A stretch of 64,000 bases of DNA from a virus (lineage: Duplodnaviria; Heunggongvirae; Uroviricota; Caudoviricetes). The position numbers were made by a program, and so were the translations under genes. Within the stretch, counting starts at the first letter, position 1. The number at the start of each line of letters is the position of its first letter. The notes beneath the pieces were generated by a model. It saw only the letters and a program-made list of their open reading frames with translations, was not told the origin of the DNA and searched no databases. The stretch lies in IMG/VR virus record IMGVR_UViG_3300035210_000190. One strand, written 5' to 3'. This document shows, in pieces, positions 6,504 to 64,000 of this stretch.

Positions 6504-7259
6504 ATGAATCGAGTTACCATCAAGAACTCCCCAATTGAAGGTCAGTGGATGTTGGTTGACACTCCAGAAAATTTGATGACTTTCATGGAGCATACTTCCA
6601 GTCAAGTGGTTGCACAAGTTAGCCATTTGATCCGTGAGAAAGCCGAAATTGAAAGCTGGGGTGATGTTCCACGCACTACACCGGCTGCTGGCATCCTTGC
6701 AGCAACGGTTGCTCACTGCAAACTTCATGGTAAAAACCCAATTTACGAATTGGATGGTATTATCAACAAACGTTTCTCCAATATGCTGGCAGAAATTCTT
6801 GATGGTAAACGAGTCCTGATTAACTCAGCAGGTGGCTATTGCTTCATGCTTCCAGAATGGGAAATTGAAACAGAAGAACCTGTTGATATGGGATGGAAAT
6901 CTACTCACGTCATCAATGCAAACACCCAATACATCAACCTTGAAAATGACCCGTATCTGGAAGAGCACACACGTCAGTATTTGGGACAACGAGATCAGAA
7001 TTTTTCCTACATCTTGAATTTGGGCGGATACACAAAAGAAGCTCTGGTGTCTGCGTTTACCGAATTCAAAGCAAAAGGTGGCAAAATCGTTTATGTTTAC
7101 ACCACTGGTATGAACGTGCCACAGATGTATGAATATTTTGAGGCTGCACAGAATGCAGGTTTGAAGGACTTTGAATTCCATTTCAATGCCTTCATCACTG
7201 ATGGTATCCAAGGCTTTATTGAGCATATCAAAGCTCGGGCCAATGTAACTATCCTGTAA
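6504..7259 (+). CDS. hypothetical protein
   Basis: 251-aa ORF filling a promoter-terminator cassette. Confidence 0.85.
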   Translation: MNRVTIKNSPIEGQWMLVDTPENLMTFMEHTSSQVVAQVSHLIREKAEIESWGDVPRTTPAAGILAATVAHCKLHGKNPIYELDGIINKRFSNMLAEILDGKRVLINSAGGYCFMLPEWEIETEEPVDMGWKSTHVINANTQYINLENDPYLEEHTRQYLGQRDQNFSYILNLGGYTKEALVSAFTEFKAKGGKIVYVYTTGMNVPQMYEYFEAAQNAGLKDFEFHFNAFITDGIQGFIEHIKARANVTIL

Positions 7260-7487: not shown

Positions 7488-7535
7488 TTTACATAAAATC
7501 TGATTTTAGCTATACTTGTCTCATCAAAACGAAAC
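7488..7535 (+). promoter_or_regulatory. strong sigma70-like promoter with CATCAAAACGAAAC leader
   Basis: TTTACA-17 nt-TATACT then CATCAAAACGAAAC; same layout before the copies at 12023 and 32429. Confidence 0.8.
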
Positions 7536-7561
7536 ACCATAAACCAGTCGGAGATACACAA

Positions 7562-7693
7562 ATGCAAGGTTCTTTCGGTGAAGCAACAGAACGTTTTCGT
7601 GGTAAGCAACAAGATTCTTCCAAGACCAAAGAAAACCGCAAAGAGCGTCAGTTCCGTGATGCTCGCCGCAACCGTCATCAAGACGCCGAATAA
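7562..7693 (+). CDS. 43-aa basic peptide, MQGS...RHQDAE family copy 1
   Basis: MQGSFGEATERFRGKQQDSSKTKENRKERQFRDARRNRHQDAE; GGAG SD; three paralogues in window. Confidence 0.9.
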   Translation: MQGSFGEATERFRGKQQDSSKTKENRKERQFRDARRNRHQDAE

Positions 7694-7704
7694 GGAAATC
7701 CATT

Positions 7705-8013
7705 ATGTATTTGATTGCCGTTAAAGACCTCGATCCAAACAATGCTCTGGGCTACATGTTCTGGTCTGGGTTCAAAGCTGACGCACAAGGCGATGGCTCA
7801 CTGCCTACCTTCAGTAAGCCAATGGTCAGTGCTGACACAGGTTTTCAAGAAAACGAAAAAAGCCTGCAGGCCACGCTGTTCACCACAAAACAGTATGCTG
7901 ATAAAGAAGTTCTTCGGCTCAAAGAACTTATCCACAAACACACAGGAAAATATTATGAAATGGAAACAATCAGTGCCGACTTGGCTGGAAGTATGTTGAA
8001 ACTCTGGAAGTAA
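7705..8013 (+). CDS. hypothetical protein, paralogue of 47177..47461
   Basis: Shared LG...WSGF and NEKS....F.T..YA..E..RL. Confidence 0.8.
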   Translation: MYLIAVKDLDPNNALGYMFWSGFKADAQGDGSLPTFSKPMVSADTGFQENEKSLQATLFTTKQYADKEVLRLKELIHKHTGKYYEMETISADLAGSMLKLWK

Positions 8014-11202: not shown

Positions 11203-11379
11203 ATGAGCCACTTTGAAGAAGAAGCCCATCCTGTCACTCGCTTTGCACTGTTCCCACGTCAGATTGCTGGTCAGTGGATTTGGTTGAAATCGTTTGTATC
11301 TGATCGTGTGCTTGTTCATGGGCGTATGGATGGCTGCAGCACTGACATTTATGAATATCAGAACCATCGGCTAGCCTAA
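11203..11379 (+). CDS. hypothetical protein (58 aa, not in ORF track)
   Basis: MSHFEEEAHPVTRFALFPRQIAGQWIWLKSF... after TGATATAAT promoter and AGGT SD. Confidence 0.7.
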   Translation: MSHFEEEAHPVTRFALFPRQIAGQWIWLKSFVSDRVLVHGRMDGCSTDIYEYQNHRLA

Positions 11380-11442
11380 AATAGTTGTGAAATGTCGTTT
11401 TTGATGATATAATCAACCCATCAAACATTCCGAGGATTTAAA

Positions 11443-11868
11443 ATGAAAGGTTTTGATTTTCACAAAAAAATGCAGTTTCTTGAACTCGTTGTTCGAGATC
11501 ATTGCAAGTCTATGCATATTTCTTTGGTTTGCTATGTCATGAACCCAAAGCGAGACAAAAAAAGCATGGTCGATTTTCATAATCTTTCGGCACTCAATGA
11601 TGGTTTTGAGCAAAGCCTGAAGTCAATCTTCCGTAAATATGGCCGCAACCTCGAAGGGAAGACTGGTGTTGATGTTGTTGTCACCAATGAAGAACTGAAT
11701 GCTTTTACAAAAGCATACTACCTTCAAAAAGATTTGCTCAAAAAAGAATTTGAAAATCTGCAACTTTTGGGCGTTTCTAACGAAGTTCTTGGACGCCTTG
11801 AAGTGGATATTGATGATTGGGCTAAATTCTATCGTGATTTCATCGAGGAAGCAAAATCGTTCAAGTAA
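11443..11868 (+). CDS. hypothetical protein
   Basis: 141-aa ORF, GAGGA SD. Confidence 0.85.
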   Translation: MKGFDFHKKMQFLELVVRDHCKSMHISLVCYVMNPKRDKKSMVDFHNLSALNDGFEQSLKSIFRKYGRNLEGKTGVDVVVTNEELNAFTKAYYLQKDLLKKEFENLQLLGVSNEVLGRLEVDIDDWAKFYRDFIEEAKSFK

Positions 11869-11889
11869 CAACAGTTTGACTTCACATAA

Positions 11890-11911
11890 AAGAGGCTTCG
11901 GCCTCTTTTTT
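11890..11911 (+). terminator. repeated terminator, copy 3 of 5
   Basis: AAGAGGCTTCGGCCTCTT plus T-tract. Confidence 0.9.
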
Positions 11912-12022
11912 ATTATCAATAAACTGTAAAATGATGAAAAACTGCTTTACATGATAGCTCGATTTCGATATACTTATCCCATCAAAACGAAACACCACAA
12001 TCAAACAGTTAGGAGATACACC

Positions 12023-12154
12023 ATGCAAGGTTCTTTCGGTGAAGCCACAGAGCGTTTTCGCGGTAAGCAACAAGACACTTCGAAGTCCAAAGAAAATCGC
12101 AAGGAACGTAACTTCCGTGATAAACGGCGGAACCGTCACCAAGACGCAGAGTAA
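12023..12154 (+). CDS. 43-aa basic peptide, MQGS family copy 2
   Basis: MQGSFGEATERFRGKQQDTSKSKENRKERNFRDKRRNRHQDAE; AGGAG SD; TTTACA-17-TATACT promoter. Confidence 0.9.
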   Translation: MQGSFGEATERFRGKQQDTSKSKENRKERNFRDKRRNRHQDAE

Positions 12155-12208
12155 TCGACAAAAGAAAAAGCCCTAGTGATAGGGCTTTTTTGTTTCTTCT
12201 TTTTAATC

Positions 12209-12820
12209 TTATAGTGCTGTGCGACAAACTTTACTTATTGTATATGAACCATAGTTTGCGGTTAAAACACCTTTGGTGTATTTGTAAGCTCCAACTACTT
12301 TTTGAGTAGATGCAAAATCGCCACCACTATAAACCAATACGCCATTTGATGTTATATTTAACAATGAATAAGCCGGTGAACCTGCTACCCAAGTTGAGTT
12401 TGGAATATCACATTCTTCTGGTGATTTAGTACCAACCGCAGATCTAGTTATTGTTTGATTACTCAATGTTCTGTTTTCATTTTTTACAGGGCCGACAGGT
12501 CTATATTCATGACTTACATTGTTTTGTTCTCTTTCCTGCACTGTTCTGGTTTGCACTTGTGTACACCCAGTAGCTGATTGCTCAAATGCCACTCCAATAT
12601 TTTTTGTACTTGGGTCAGGCGTCCATGCAGAACAACCTGTTGGCGACCCTACATTTGTCCATTCACTTACTAATGGATCAGAATTTAACCACTTACTTAC
12701 GAACTTGATGTTATCTCCATTAATTTGCTTATCACCGTATATAACTTGGTAACTTGCGTTTGCATTAGCCATTATGCCTAGCAAAGCAAATGGCAAGATC
12801 ATTAAACTTATTTTTTTCAT
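12209..12820 (-). CDS. exported protein with TSP1-like W/C module
   Basis: Signal peptide ending ANA; SEWTN....GCSAW.P...C.Q.Q.RT; tandem paralogue at 12868. Confidence 0.8.
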   Translation of the reverse strand: MKKISLMILPFALLGIMANANASYQVIYGDKQINGDNIKFVSKWLNSDPLVSEWTNVGSPTGCSAWTPDPSTKNIGVAFEQSATGCTQVQTRTVQEREQNNVSHEYRPVGPVKNENRTLSNQTITRSAVGTKSPEECDIPNSTWVAGSPAYSLLNITSNGVLVYSGGDFASTQKVVGAYKYTKGVLTANYGSYTISKVCRTAL

Positions 12821-12867
12821 ATCTTTACTCATTATTATTATTAATTTAAAACTTATTATACATTGTA

Positions 12868-13491
12868 TTATATTGGAACTCTACAAACGCTATGGAATGT
12901 GTAATAACCTAAGTTAGCAGTTTGAGCACCTTTGGTATATTTATATCCATTATAAGTATATTCTGTTAAGTAAATATTTCCAACATCAGGGAATACTTTT
13001 ACATTATCCCACATAACATACATAATACCGAATGAAGGTGTGCCATTAACCCAGCGTGTATTTTGATCTTTCGAACATTCGTCCATTACCTTTGTTCCAT
13101 TTGCAGATCGGGTCATTGTCTGGTTAGTGAGCGTTTGCGTTTCATTTATTGGACTTCCAATAGGTCGGAAGTCTAGTGTATAATCATTTTGCTCTCTGTT
13201 TTGAGTTGTTCTTGTTTGTTCTTGTGTACAGTTATTGGCGGTTTGGTTAAACGTAGTGCCAATAGCTACTGTGCTTGGATCTGGTGCCCAGTTTGAACAA
13301 CCCGTAGCAGAACCAACATTCGTCCAGTCTGATATTGCTGGAGATGCTTTTATCCATTTACCTTTTTTTACAAACGTAATGTTATCGCCATTGATTTGTT
13401 TCTCTCCATATATAGCAGTATATGAAGCATTTGCTGTTAATACAGTGCTGGCTAATAGAGCACTTGCTAACATGAGTATTGAATTTTTCAT
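12868..13491 (-). CDS. exported protein with TSP1-like W/C module
   Basis: Signal peptide ending ANA; SDWTN....GCSNW.P...C.QEQ.RT; C-terminal YKYTKG...VCR. Confidence 0.8.
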   Translation of the reverse strand: MKNSILMLASALLASTVLTANASYTAIYGEKQINGDNITFVKKGKWIKASPAISDWTNVGSATGCSNWAPDPSTVAIGTTFNQTANNCTQEQTRTTQNREQNDYTLDFRPIGSPINETQTLTNQTMTRSANGTKVMDECSKDQNTRWVNGTPSFGIMYVMWDNVKVFPDVGNIYLTEYTYNGYKYTKGAQTANLGYYTFHSVCRVPI

Positions 13492-32264: not shown

Positions 32265-32428
32265 GAAAAGGGCCGAATGGCCCTTTTTTGTTTCTTGTTA
32301 AAAATCAATAAGATAAACACAAAAATTTAGGATTTTTTTTAAGAAAAAAACGAAAATAATGCTTTACAGCTACCCACTTTTTCCATATAATGAACCCATC
32401 AAAACGAAACAACACAAGGAAATACAAA

Positions 32429-32566: not shown

Positions 32567-32651
32567 GCCCGGTTGGTGAAATTGGTAGACACGAGGGACT
32601 TAAAATCCCTTTCCGAAAGGAGTGCCGGTTCGAGTCCGGCACCGGGCACCA
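32567..32651 (+). tRNA. tRNA-Leu (anticodon TAA)
   Basis: Cloverleaf: GCCCGGT/ACCGGGC acceptor, AGGGA-CTTAAAA-TCCCT anticodon arm, long variable arm, T-arm, encoded CCA. Confidence 0.97.
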
Positions 32652-32689: not shown

Positions 32690-32721
32690 GTGCCAGAGGT
32701 GAGCCAATAATGCAGCATTAA
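32690..32721 (+). other. minigene unit 1 (SD GAGGTGA, 7 nt, ATG CAG CAT TAA)
   Basis: GTGCCAGAGGTGA-N7-ATGCAG-NNN-TAA; matched copy at 32799-32830. Confidence 0.7.
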
Positions 32722-32798
32722 CACTTAATTTAATCTATAATTGAATCTAGTATAATGATTGTTGAATGCCGACTAACCCTTAGTTCCTATTAAAGTAA

Positions 32799-32830
32799 GT
32801 GCCAGAGGTGAACTACCGATGCAGTTCTAA
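32799..32830 (+). other. minigene unit 2 (SD GAGGTGA, 7 nt, ATG CAG TTC TAA)
   Basis: Same 13-nt upstream block, spacing and stop position as unit 1. Confidence 0.7.
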
Positions 32831-32877
32831 ATTCAAATAAAATTGAGAATTTAAACTTAATATTAGTATAAAGAAAA

Positions 32878-32900
32878 GCCCCGTTAATTCGGGGTTTTTT
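32878..32900 (+). terminator. intrinsic terminator closing the peptide-tRNA-minigene unit
   Basis: GCCCCG-TTAATT-CGGGGT plus T-tract. Confidence 0.8.
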
Positions 32901-44770: not shown

Positions 44771-44935
44771 GTTATTATTCTTATAATTGTGTTTATTCAT
44801 TCTAGCACAATAATATAAAAGTCAAAAAAAATTCAATTTATTCATAGATGAATGATGTGTTTAAAAGAAAGATTCATTGACATAAAAACTCGTTTTTGAT
44901 ATAATTATCCCATCGAAACCAATGAGATTAATGAC

Positions 44936-54333: not shown

Positions 54334-54506
54334 TCAGTAAATCTTTGATAGATGGGGCTTCGGCTCCATTTTTTTGCCTATAAAATGACCCCCGTTCTCA
54401 TAAATCTTACAATTACCCACTTTCCCCCTCATTTGGGTAAAATCTCCTTGTATGGGTGATGGCATTTTGTTATACTTGTTCCACACAAACAGACAGAGAT
54501 AGAATA

Positions 54507-55205
54507 ATGTTCAAGAAAGCCATTATCGTTGCATTTGCCAGCTTGGTTGTAGGTTGCTCGGCAAACGGTATTAAAACAAACCCAGTTGATGTGAAAGCTG
54601 CTGTCAACGGCCTGCAAAACTACAACGTGGTAGAAGACAAAAGCCTCAAAGTAGATGGTAAAGAACTGCAGTTCATCACCTTTCACAAGAAAACTGAAAG
54701 CGTTGTTGTCGAAAATGGTAAGAAATTCAAAGATACCGTGGACGATTTCGGTAGCGGTGCTCAATGGAACGCTGATTATGTGGTGACGGCTAAGCATGTG
54801 AATTTTGTAGAAAACTTGGCTTACCTTTGCGAAATAGGTTGCGACCTTCAATTTGTCAAGCGTAAATCCGCTGGGGCTGTCCCTGTTTGGCGTGATGTTG
54901 TTGCACTGGAAAAAATCACGTTTGTTGGTATTGACAAAACTAACACCCTTCAAAATAAATCTGGCATTGACCTTAATCGTATCACCAGCACCGATTCTAA
55001 CAGTGCAATTAATATTCGACTGGTCAGCACTCAAACACTCGGCGGTATGTCAGGTGGCCCAGCTTATGGACAAGACGGCTCGGTTGTAGGTATCTTGACC
55101 GGCAGTGTTTCGATGGATGGTGCTACTGATCAGGCTGTCTTGGTTCCTTATGAAGTCATCAAGGCAGAATGGGACAGATTCCAAGCCACTAAAAACTGGC
55201 ATTGA
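54507..55205 (+). CDS. lipoprotein trypsin-like serine protease
   Basis: Lipobox LVVGC; triad candidates TAKHV (His), CDLQF (Asp), GGMSGGP (Ser). Confidence 0.8.
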   Translation: MFKKAIIVAFASLVVGCSANGIKTNPVDVKAAVNGLQNYNVVEDKSLKVDGKELQFITFHKKTESVVVENGKKFKDTVDDFGSGAQWNADYVVTAKHVNFVENLAYLCEIGCDLQFVKRKSAGAVPVWRDVVALEKITFVGIDKTNTLQNKSGIDLNRITSTDSNSAINIRLVSTQTLGGMSGGPAYGQDGSVVGILTGSVSMDGATDQAVLVPYEVIKAEWDRFQATKNWH

Positions 55206-55333
55206 AATAAAACAGTCAGTATCACTAGACCGCCTTCGGGCGGTTTTTTATTGTCAAAATTCTTATTTTTGTTGCTCTCTATTGTGTTTTTTGCTATACT
55301 TGAACCATCAAAACGAAAGCAGGGAATTATGTC

Positions 55334-55651
55334 ATGACTACCCATCAGGCTCAAGTTTCTCAGTTTACTCGTGACCAATACCTCAATGGCAAATGCTCGC
55401 CTTCCGAATACTATGCACAGTTCATCACTCCAACGGGTGTCGCGTTGGTTGAACGTAGCCCCATCTTTCAAACGCTGAAAAACTCCGAAGTCAAAAAAAT
55501 CACCGATCTCCCTTTGCTGGGTTGGAATGGCATCGGTTCCGCTTCGGACGCTTGCCGGTTGCTGAATGAACTTGGCGATCACTGGTCGTTGGCGACATCG
55601 GTAGTCATTAATAAAACAATTGCCGCTCATCTGCTGGGGATTCGGTCGTAG
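55334..55651 (+). CDS. hypothetical protein, paralogue of 50007
   Basis: See 50007. Confidence 0.8.
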   Translation: MTTHQAQVSQFTRDQYLNGKCSPSEYYAQFITPTGVALVERSPIFQTLKNSEVKKITDLPLLGWNGIGSASDACRLLNELGDHWSLATSVVINKTIAAHLLGIRS

Positions 55652-56692: not shown

Positions 56693-57724
56693 ATGATACT
56701 CATTCCTGAAAACTTGAATTCAAAAGGTTTGACCCGACTGACATCCAATGTCCGTTCATTGATTGGACGTGTTAAACGCTATTACCCAAACCTCACGTTT
56801 GATATTCTTGAAAAGGAAGTCATTGCACGTCTTAAAACCAATCAGATTAATGAACATTCCTACTGTGAATTGACCGGATTGAAATTTAACGATATGGGAA
56901 CTGTGTTTCTCATTCCCGTTAACCCTTATACCGCCGATATTGTTTCTATTAATCAAGTGCTAATTGTTCATCAACAAACCGTTAACTTTTGGTTTGAACT
57001 TCATAAAATCATGAAAGAATCACCCGATTTTATAGCGGTAGGCGATACAAAGGCTCAACTCAGGTTGATTCACGACACCCTTCGTGCTAAATCCAAGACC
57101 ACCAGCCTGTCACCAGAAGTCGTTGATCTGTCTTTGCTGATTGAACGTTCTTCGCAGACGCCTGAGCGTATCATTAATCTTAAAAATCGGTTGGCTGACC
57201 CTTTGCAACCCCGTCCGGTACTTCCAGTTTTTAAAGCGTCGGATTTTGTTCGTAAAGCATCGTTCTATTCAGACCGGGCCATTCTTCGCAAAATTGAAAT
57301 GTGCAAAGAGCGTTCCAAAAGCAAGGGTTTTACCAGCGATCTCACTTTTGAGAACTCTAAGCACCTGTTTAACGTCACTCACTGTCAATTGACTGGTTTG
57401 CCGTTAGTTAAAGCCACTAAAACACAGGAAGACAATCCATTTGGTTTCTCGATTGACCGGATCAATCGTTTCGAAGGTTATAATGTATCCAATCTGTTGA
57501 TTGTGGCTCATGAAGTCAATAAGATAAAATCCAAACTGGAATGGTCGAATTACACAGAAAGTGTTGAGAACCTTCGTGAGATCTTGACGCAAGCCAAAGA
57601 AATGATGTTGAAGCGTCACGCCCACGACAATCTGCATAATCGCAAGCAGCCTTTGCCGATTGACACCATTATCGAAAACTATCTTGCAAAAGATGAGAAC
57701 CATAAAAAGTTCATTTTCGGCTAA
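56693..57724 (+). CDS. protein with HNH-like (His-Me finger) nuclease domain and a degenerate N-terminal repeat
   Basis: C.LTGLP...SIDRI....GY..SNL.IV...VN..K near C-terminus; YCELTGL near N-terminus. Confidence 0.65.
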   Translation: MILIPENLNSKGLTRLTSNVRSLIGRVKRYYPNLTFDILEKEVIARLKTNQINEHSYCELTGLKFNDMGTVFLIPVNPYTADIVSINQVLIVHQQTVNFWFELHKIMKESPDFIAVGDTKAQLRLIHDTLRAKSKTTSLSPEVVDLSLLIERSSQTPERIINLKNRLADPLQPRPVLPVFKASDFVRKASFYSDRAILRKIEMCKERSKSKGFTSDLTFENSKHLFNVTHCQLTGLPLVKATKTQEDNPFGFSIDRINRFEGYNVSNLLIVAHEVNKIKSKLEWSNYTESVENLREILTQAKEMMLKRHAHDNLHNRKQPLPIDTIIENYLAKDENHKKFIFG

Positions 57725-63200: not shown

Positions 63201-63290
63201 ATGAAATAAAATGTTGTTTTTGTTGGTGTGGCTTGGTATACTTATCCCATCAAAACGAAACAACATAAACCCAAGGTTAGGAGATACAAC

Positions 63291-63425
63291 ATGCAAGGTT
63301 CTTTCGGTGACGCACAAGAACGTTTTCGCGGCGGCAAGAAAAAAGACAATGAACAAGCGAAGTTCAATAAAAAAGACAACGAGTTTCGCAATCGTCGTCG
63401 CAACCGTCACCAAGACGCAGATTAA
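63291..63425 (+). CDS. 44-aa basic peptide, MQGS family copy 4
   Basis: MQGSFGDAQERFRGGKKKDNEQAKFNKKDNEFRNRRRNRHQDAD; AGGAG SD; TATACT and CATCAAAACGAAAC leader. Confidence 0.9.
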   Translation: MQGSFGDAQERFRGGKKKDNEQAKFNKKDNEFRNRRRNRHQDAD

Positions 63426-63559
63426 TCTCTGTTAAAAAAGAAGGCATCCGAAAGGGTGCCTTTTTTGTTGCATTTGAATTTATCCTACAATATTTATTGA
63501 CCAAAAAACTTTTTTTTGTTATAATTACTCCAACAAAACAAACCTCACAGGGCATCGCC

Positions 63560-63808: not shown

Positions 63809-63965
63809 AAAGACACTTGCGTAAAATCGTATTTTTTGAATGGACTTCGGTCCATTTTTTTTTAAATAAATTTTAGCATTGTAAAAATACTTCTTGACCA
63901 TAAATGTGTTTTTTGATATTATAGACACATCAAAACGAAGCAACCAACCTTCTCGGAGATACACC

Positions 63966-64000
63966 ATGACTCAAGTTACCGCTCTCGAACGTGCTGTTAT
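63966..64000 (+). CDS. 5' end of a paralogue of 10223 (cut by window edge)
   Basis: MTQVTALERAV versus MTKVTALETAV; near-identical promoter and leader. Confidence 0.8.
   Translation, partial: MTQVTALERAV

Follow-up and report, generated by a model that had tools for sequence, protein, structure and literature searches.

Four dispersed genes for a 43-44-residue basic protein in a phage record belong to a conserved family recurrently fused to tRNA operons

Four copies of one small gene and their expression signals

IMG/VR virus record IMGVR_UViG_3300035210_000190 (Duplodnaviria; Heunggongvirae; Uroviricota; Caudoviricetes) is represented here by a stretch of 64,000 nucleotides (nt), the window, on whose plus strand lie four dispersed genes for an arginine- and lysine-rich protein of 43 or 44 amino acids (aa). 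A preliminary description of the sequence had placed these paralogues at 7562, 12023, 32429 and 63291, with products of 43, 43, 43 and 44 aa, and translation bears out both positions and lengths. The MQGS start and R-x-R-H-x-D-A-(E/D) end that it had remarked upon are seen in all four window copies, whose alignment has 17 invariant columns out of 43. What had been observed of the four paralogues is confirmed, and the interpretation that accompanied it is, as a whole, partly supported. Gene callers regularly overlook proteins of less than 50 aa, and the program-made open reading frame (ORF) list of the window, with its default cut-off of 60 aa, contains, as already pointed out, only two of the copies, each with a wrong start: copy 2 as 67 aa from 11951 and copy 4 as 65 aa from a GTG at 63228. 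Both false starts fall inside the promoter or the leader. The features of the four loci are listed below, where CDS is the coding sequence, SD a Shine-Dalgarno site, and E-R-F and E-K-F are subtypes told apart by residue 11.

7488-7516, plus strand: promoter of copy 1, TTTACA-17-TATACT
7522-7561, plus strand: A/C-rich leader of copy 1, CATCAAAACGAAAC..., with SD GGAGATACA at 7550-7558
7562-7693, plus strand: copy 1 CDS, 43 aa (P0001), stand-alone E-R-F type
7705-8013, plus strand: ORF of 102 aa starting 11 nt past copy 1
11946-11974, plus strand: promoter of copy 2, TTTACA-17-TATACT
11980-12022, plus strand: leader of copy 2, with SD GGAGATACA at 12012-12020
12023-12154, plus strand: copy 2 CDS, 43 aa (P0002), monocistronic, E-R-F
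12165-12192, plus strand: intrinsic terminator of copy 2, GCCCTA...TAGGGC and a T run
32363-32391, plus strand: promoter of the copy 3/tRNA-Leu operon, TTTACA-17-TATAAT
32397-32428, plus strand: leader of copy 3, CATCAAAACGAAAC...AAGGAAATACAAA
32429-32560, plus strand: copy 3 CDS, 43 aa (P0003), tRNA-leader E-K-F type
32567-32651, plus strand: tRNA-Leu(UAA), with no promoter between it and copy 3
32711-32722, plus strand: SD-led three-codon minigene ATG CAG CAT TAA, in the tail of the copy 3 transcript
32819-32830, plus strand: SD-led three-codon minigene ATG CAG TTC TAA, in the same tail
32873-32900, plus strand: terminator of the copy 3, tRNA-Leu and minigene unit
63234-63242, plus strand: promoter of copy 4, an extended -10 element TGGTATACT without a -35 match, read from the sequence
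63248-63290, plus strand: leader of copy 4, with SD GGAGATACA at 63280-63288
63291-63425, plus strand: copy 4 CDS, 44 aa (P0004), monocistronic, E-R-F
63440-63467, plus strand: intrinsic terminator of copy 4

Each copy has a full set of signals for strong expression, from which expression and abundance are inferred. Promoters of the form TTTACA-17-TATA(C/A)T precede three copies (1-3), as had been stated, and the sole pointer to an early timing is the sigma70 type of these promoters, which would be consistent with it. Copies 2 and 3 are each preceded by a terminator and then a promoter, and copies 2 and 4 each run directly into a terminator. The shared 14-nt leader block CATCAAAACGAAAC is indeed found as an exact match before all four copies; allowing up to one mismatch, there are six such sites in the window against 0.08 expected. 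Two of these, each with one mismatch and on the plus strand, precede unrelated genes: one at 55306-55319, behind an extended -10 promoter and before a 105-aa gene (55334-55651), and another at 63928-63941, before a gene whose ATG is at 63967 and which runs off the window. The leader is therefore tied to a promoter class rather than to the peptide. The SD block GGAGATACA occurs seven times against 0.28 expected, three of the seven being those of copies 1, 2 and 4.

The copy 2 leader is unpaired in the predicted minimum-free-energy fold, and that of copy 3 is near-identical to the leaders of tRNA-linked copies in relatives. The A of ATCAAAAC is the predicted transcription start for these units, which for copy 2 places +1 at 11981. 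Other sigma70-type promoters of the window (44877-44905, 63497-63525 and others) carry the same discriminator and start motif, TATCCCATC / TACTCCAAC, so that the start region is common to promoters of the element. Contigs from three wastewater libraries labelled RNA-Seq and from one unlabelled run were aligned to 11300-12900. Short contigs, 85-95% alike and with a word depth of 100-620, span the leader and 5' CDS of copy 2, and one contig of 198 nt runs from 11981 through the copy 2 stop codon. This pattern would suit plentiful short transcripts from family members in wastewater libraries, but neither observation was counted as evidence of expression. Contigs cannot give RNA ends or levels, the library type was guessed, and uncovered flanks prove nothing. 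In related DNA or RNA from the wastewater runs and the unlabelled run, the same leader (window 11994-12000) also continues into a different gene (MAKL...), which shows that the leader has been swapped between genes.

The layout of these loci recalls the PeSL cassettes of T4-type phages, in which small genes, dispersed in plastic regions, have a terminator stem-loop and a strong sigma70-like promoter as their borders (PMC2839356, PMC4122927). Window copies are likewise flanked by terminator and sigma70-like promoter; PeSL elements differ in that they are regulatory modules carrying varied ORFans and not one conserved peptide. By analogy, the paralogues have plausibly been dispersed by recombination between PeSL-like terminator-promoter modules.

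A conserved protein family under purifying selection

Relatives of the four copies were sought with a profile search of 1.84 billion cluster representatives (E<=1e-3; clusters at 50% identity), which returned 34 clusters, one of them spurious (a 423-aa repeat protein). The 33 genuine clusters all align as 40-46 aa once miscalled N-terminal extensions have been trimmed. Their conserved start comprises MQGS, an aromatic residue at 5, D/E7, E10, K/R11, F12, K15, K/R17 and D/N18, and the second half has a hydrophobic residue at 24 followed by K/R26, D/E28, R/K29, F/W31, R32, K/R34, R35, R/Q/K36, N37, R38 and H39. The C-terminal block has the consensus (F/W)R-x-(K/R)R-x-NRH, and about 13 positions are kept down to 35% identity. 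After H39 come two to five mostly acidic, variable residues. The fixed length and fixed ends that had been claimed for the four copies thus hold across the family for the MQGS start, but not for the length of 40-46 aa or for the last two to five residues. Lysine and arginine make up 31% of the composition, aspartate and glutamate 16%, and codon usage is biased to CGT/CGC, AAA and CAA.

That these ORFs are genuine protein genes follows, at the level of sequence comparison, from the pattern of substitution. Copies 1 and 2 differ at 13.5 synonymous and 6.5 non-synonymous positions, for a dN/dS of 0.08 (Nei-Gojobori), and three other unsaturated pairs gave 0.15, 0.14 and 0.19 by the same method, the last being copy 3 against its closest counterpart (L018:1498-1620) in a related 290-kb element described below, which likewise heads a tRNA cluster. 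In most other pairs synonymous sites are saturated, with dN at 0.2-0.6. A ratio near 1 across homologues had been named in advance as a result that would count against the proposed peptide; the unsaturated pairs, at 0.08-0.19, indicate purifying selection instead. Orthologues of copy 1 from strains in other metagenomes carry three substitutions, all at third-codon positions, while their flanks show 14-21 differences per 300 nt. The MQGS start itself is selected as protein, since its codons vary synonymously (GGT/GGC, TCT/TCA).

These figures bear on the idea that the units are small non-coding RNAs, or chance ORFs within a repeated regulatory cassette. At about 200 nt from promoter to terminator the units have the dimensions of small RNA genes, and two monocistronic units fold better than their shuffles (z = -2.1 and -3.3). 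The extra folding energy, however, belongs mainly to the terminator hairpin, the two predicted folds differ from one another, and there is no Rfam match; dS is 0.8 or saturated with dN low, and frame, start and length are kept in 33 clusters. Rejected on the grounds of dN/dS, Rfam and the folds, a non-protein origin is now scarcely credible.

The family, which the preliminary description did not recognise, is equally absent from the libraries: none of the 36 members has a Pfam, PHROG or NCBIfam match or a counterpart in the PDB. Pfam returned no family for any of the 36 at E<=5, and the best profile match in the PDB is the basic tail of eukaryotic eS24, at a non-significant E of 0.71. An ESM Atlas feature search gave no usable match, and literature searches on peptide-tRNA operons and Arg-rich phage microproteins turned up nothing on this family. 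Among cultured phages, megablast of 6 kb found no match and blastn of the copy 2 unit gave only spurious short ones; tblastn of P0001 and P0017 (E<=10) was also negative, although the low-complexity filter probably masks these queries. No search supports a presumed likeness of the C-terminal block to parts of bL32 (its N-terminal extension), bL34 (KRNRSH) and the RNase P protein (its RNR motif). For bL34, bL36, bS21 and bS22/Sra there was no Pfam or NCBIfam match, no ribosomal chain beyond the eS24 tail and nothing by Foldseek in the PDB, and the family has no match at E<=5 to Pfam 'KGG', the general-stress repeat proteins.

Further relatives were gathered with a degenerate DNA pattern; pattern matches at seven loci (L024, L025, L027, L028, L033, L035 and L039) proved to be due to chance or to longer ORFs that are unrelated. 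IMG/VR contigs of 64-290 kb contributed members, as did many short contigs from metagenomes and several of great length, and one family-bearing contig was binned in a Flavobacteriaceae metagenome-assembled genome. Judging from these sources, the family occurs in large uncultured phage-like elements and is missing from existing family libraries.

Conserved fusion to tRNA operons

Copy 3 is, as had been stated, the first gene of a tRNA-Leu(UAA) unit, its stop codon lying 6 nt before the tRNA; an Rfam scan of the window detected two tRNAs only. The arrangement is not peculiar to this genome. All fetched loci were scanned with a hidden Markov model built from the 36-sequence alignment, duplicates were removed and tRNAs were called with ARAGORN, which left 46 informative units, with the following features after the stop codon of the peptide gene. 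These counts include paralogues and relatives by duplication, and so overstate independent events.

17 of 46 units: tRNA or tRNA-like gene within 35 nt
3 of 46 units: tRNA at 36-100 nt, behind a hairpin
19 of 46 units: immediate terminator (14 by script, 5 by eye)
5 of 46 units: another ORF
2 of 46 units: SD-led minigene, then tRNAs

The first tRNA in the 20 linked units is Arg-UCU in ten, Leu-UAA in seven and Leu-CAA in one, the other two being tRNA-like genes with an abnormal anticodon loop. Where the tRNA or tRNA-like gene is within 35 nt, the gap from the stop codon is 6-12 nt in 14 of 17 units, and Arg-UCU begins exactly 9 nt past the stop in nine of its ten. Members whose identity to copy 1 is no more than 35-45% (L040, L043, L052) still have the fusion, which must therefore be old and maintained. 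It also follows subtype: 16 of the 21 E-K-F units are tRNA-linked, against four of the 23 of E-R-F type, and both subtypes coexist in this genome and in the related element IMGVR_UViG_3300024308_000302 (G001; 290 kb, sample 3300024308). That element has six copies to the four of the window, and four of its six are followed within 35 nt by a tRNA match, of which the element has 37; the chance probability of this arrangement is ~1e-8 to 1e-10, two of the four being recent duplicates. In some units (L006 at 3459, L052/L053 and probably L069) tRNA-Leu is set apart from the peptide gene by a hairpin and T run but by no new promoter.

Several observations concern the genes that accompany the family. 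ARAGORN reports 'tRNA-???' genes, with anticodons 'ga' and 'aa', right after copies at L018 (1411-1487, minus strand) and L070 (15 nt past the copy). Two ARAGORN-covered regions of G001 hold at least five copies each of tRNA-Leu(UAA) and tRNA-Arg(UCU), an unusual amplification. Minigenes of one codon or none after the ATG (ATG CAG TAA; ATG TAA) directly follow family members at L045 (~1040-1065) and L029 (~6900-6925, minus strand), and the SD context GCCAGAGGTGA... is common to these and to the three-codon minigenes of the window. This common context, together with the positions of the minigenes after family members, indicates that peptide gene, tRNA and minigene travel together.

A short Arg-rich ORF directly upstream of a tRNA-Arg gene invites comparison with the leader-peptide attenuators trpL, hisL and leuL, in which a short ORF likewise lies directly upstream on one transcript, and the peptide could by this analogy sense the supply of the Arg-UCU and Leu-UAA tRNAs encoded after it. 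The codon content contradicts such a role. Among 22 distinct tRNA-linked CDSs, AGA/AGG account for two of 139 Arg codons and UUA for none of six Leu codons, whereas in the long ORFs of the window AGR makes up 13% of Arg codons and UUA 8% of Leu codons. The family thus avoids the codons of the downstream tRNAs, which fits a product made efficiently on host tRNAs alone. With a gap of 6-12 nt there is, moreover, no room for alternative hairpins, and the peptide sequence, unlike that of an attenuator, is conserved under selection. Attenuation was accordingly rejected and is regarded as extremely improbable.

Translation of the ORF might instead matter in cis, with ribosomes on the first ~130 nt protecting the transcript from Rho or RNases, or aiding tRNA processing, and the peptide itself being secondary; recombination between promoter-terminator modules would then spread the cassette. 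In every case the ORF comes first after its promoter; the leader, rich in C and poor in G, is conserved; cleavage by RNase P at the fixed 9-nt spacing would trim the mRNA just past the stop codon; and the architecture of the units resembles PeSL cassettes (PMC2839356). Strong purifying selection on the amino acids, with some 13 positions held to 35% identity, and the half of the units that have nothing downstream to protect make this a distinctly improbable account.

Predicted fold, possible roles and the host element

An AlphaFold2 model based on 36 sequences (mean pLDDT 79) has a short helix (residues 5-11) joined by a loop to a long one (19-36), with ten-residue block means of 94 for residues 21-30 and 90 for 31-40. 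Conserved Arg/Lys residues at 26, 29, 32, 34-36 and 38 line the long helix, along with N37 and H39. In the model, positions 5, 8, 12, 24 and 31, conserved as aromatic or hydrophobic, may pack into a minimal core where the two helices meet, which would explain why both ends of the protein are conserved; the earlier proposal that its two termini dock on a partner is not needed, as these conserved positions fit helix-loop-helix packing. A homodimer prediction from two peptide copies scored 0.00, a value that speaks neither for nor against a dimer, and Foldseek of the model against the PDB found nothing at E<=10.

We consider it quite possible, though short of probable, that the product is an RNA-binding microprotein, made in abundance, with tRNA or the ribosome as its target. 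With its sigma70-type promoter, short and unstructured leader rich in A and C, strong SD site and biased codons, each copy would be a self-contained high-output unit, and many copies per genome would multiply the dose; such provisions suggest a product needed in stoichiometric amounts. This product would be a small helix-loop-helix whose long C-terminal helix is basic and is followed by a short acidic tail, and it would bind, stoichiometrically, a structured RNA of the translation machinery. The target may be the element's own Arg-UCU and Leu-UAA tRNAs and tRNA-like RNAs, or the ribosome, and binding would form part of the element's takeover of translation. It is the Arg-lined helix, together with the persistent fusion to tRNAs, tRNA-like RNAs and minigenes, that points to the translation machinery, and among the partners named in the preliminary description (the ribosome, a structured RNA or a host defence enzyme) a structured RNA or the ribosome fits best with the predicted helix and the recurrent tRNA-operon fusion. 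Its suggestion that diverged copies cover different hosts finds no support: what the copies show is a division between two old subtypes of different gene architecture that occur side by side.

Several points weigh against an RNA-binding role in translation. The N-terminal third of the model has a pLDDT of 65-71, moderate only, and library and structure searches returned no relative whose function is known. Helices rich in Arg and Lys have other partners as well, namely DNA and acidic proteins. About 40% of the units stand alone with their own terminator, so that the tRNA link could reflect sharing of the strongest promoters, and many units are related by duplication, which inflates the count of independent events. 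The host element may also be something other than a lytic phage.

Some of these points would suit a microprotein of host takeover or anti-defence, binding DNA or a host protein (nucleoid, RNA polymerase, nuclease or defence enzyme), for which the position beside tRNAs is incidental. Like many phage early inhibitors, the family is small, strongly promoted and multi-copy with a variable middle; 19 of the 46 units stand alone with their own terminator, and a basic helix could attach either to DNA or to the acidic surface of a protein. On the other hand, the junction from stop codon to tRNA is kept at 6-12 nt, mostly 9 nt, in members 35-45% identical to copy 1, and is limited to Arg-UCU, Leu-UAA/CAA and tRNA-like genes despite the 37 tRNA matches scattered in G001. 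In the neighbourhoods examined, no defence-related or partner gene is conserved beside the family. We regard such a takeover or anti-defence factor as possible but rather unlikely.

Small basic proteins with comparable settings are known. In Escherichia coli, tpr lies downstream of tRNAs. Its product Tpr, which is small and protamine-like and comes from the tyrT tRNA transcript (PMC3141248), is also a very small basic peptide on a tRNA transcript and its function is likewise unknown; compared by description only, the family differs in that its ORF lies upstream of the tRNA, is highly conserved and multi-copy, and has stand-alone copies. The Tpr-like feature, a transcript shared with tRNA genes, belongs to copy 3 and 19 other units. 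Phage bS21 and the abundant early ribosome-binding protein of phiKZ are phage-encoded ribosome binders. They are basic, RNA-binding, abundant early products, traits that for the present family are proposed; background from Grad-seq is given in PMC8545117.

In motif the family resembles the arginine-rich-motif RNA-binding helices of lambda and P22 N, HK022 Nun and HIV-1 Rev, which share a short Arg-rich alpha-helical core and a phage or virus setting; the family string (A/K)RRNRH resembles the ARRNRR of Rev. They differ in having no detectable homology to the family, which has its motif in the C-terminal part of a free-standing 43-aa protein, keeps a conserved MQGS-aromatic-x-D-x-x-E-(K/R)-F at the N-terminus and is not known to have a cognate hairpin. 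A factor like lambda N would place its Arg-rich helix on a nascent hairpin and its N-terminus on the transcription complex, allowing read-through of terminators including those before tRNA-Leu. Such a factor would agree with the predicted Arg-rich helix, with the density of terminator-promoter cassettes in the element, and with the hairpins and T runs before tRNA-Leu noted above. Lambda N, however, has about 107 aa and includes NusA- and RNA polymerase-binding regions, for which 43 aa leave no room, and no Pfam match to N or Nun was obtained. No repeated boxB-like hairpin was noticed when terminators and leaders were viewed by eye, without a systematic search, and nearly every cassette has its own promoter, so that read-through is not obviously needed. 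We give this reading, too, a low probability.

A more specific form of RNA binding in translation, in which the 43-aa protein is a co-transcribed partner that escorts the element's Arg(UCU) and Leu(UAA) tRNAs and their non-decoding mimics, is put forward as a rather speculative proposal. The peptide would bind these tRNAs, or the ribosome together with them, and either shield them from host anticodon nucleases or bias decoding to the element's genes. If correct, it would constitute, with the SD-led minigenes of the same operons, a previously undescribed module for the takeover of translation. A peptide tied to Arg-UCU and Leu-UAA tRNAs offers a concrete handle, testable by synthesis and binding, on why tRNAs, tRNA mimics and minigenes are present in large phages. 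Should it bind tRNA or the ribosome, few of the viral factors known to act on translation would be as small; if not, the family is a clean example of a high-dose phage microprotein in need of a target.

As to the host element, IMG/VR classes both G001 and a second genome, G002, as 'provirus'. Neither has a Pfam match to the T4 major capsid protein Gp23 or the T4 portal, for which control genomes gave none either, or to the terminase C-terminal domain (Terminase_6C), which was positive in five of 14 controls. Family copies also lie within 110-150-kb spans of related contigs of 0.7-1.9 Mb:

Ga0308158_10000001, 1,859,102 bp: L056/L070/L073/L089
Ga0247725_1000001, 1,539,155 bp: L061/L066/L068/L075/L088
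Ga0308157_10000028, 677,834 bp: L055/L083/L085-L087
Ga0308423_1259934, 1,851,360 bp: L007

We infer that Ga0247725_1000001 is the parent contig of G001, because each has six pattern matches over a similar span of ~150 kb. The replicon may be a prophage in a small genome, a giant element or an assembly chimaera.

Three other genes of the window are of note. On the minus strand, an ORF of 383 aa at 498-1649 has the full IS605 OrfB / TnpB set (HTH, OrfB_IS605 and Cas12f1-like TNB), and locus L042 likewise has a TnpB-like gene close to its family member. An ORF of 249 aa at 54456-55205 (plus strand) weakly matches a trypsin-like peptidase (Trypsin_2, E = 6.5e-6, just under the Pfam cut-off). For the third, of 343 aa at 56693-57724 (plus strand), a PHROG match to HNH endonuclease (E = 4e-17) is accompanied by weaker ones to 'decoy of host sigma70' and to the anti-sigma factor Srd.

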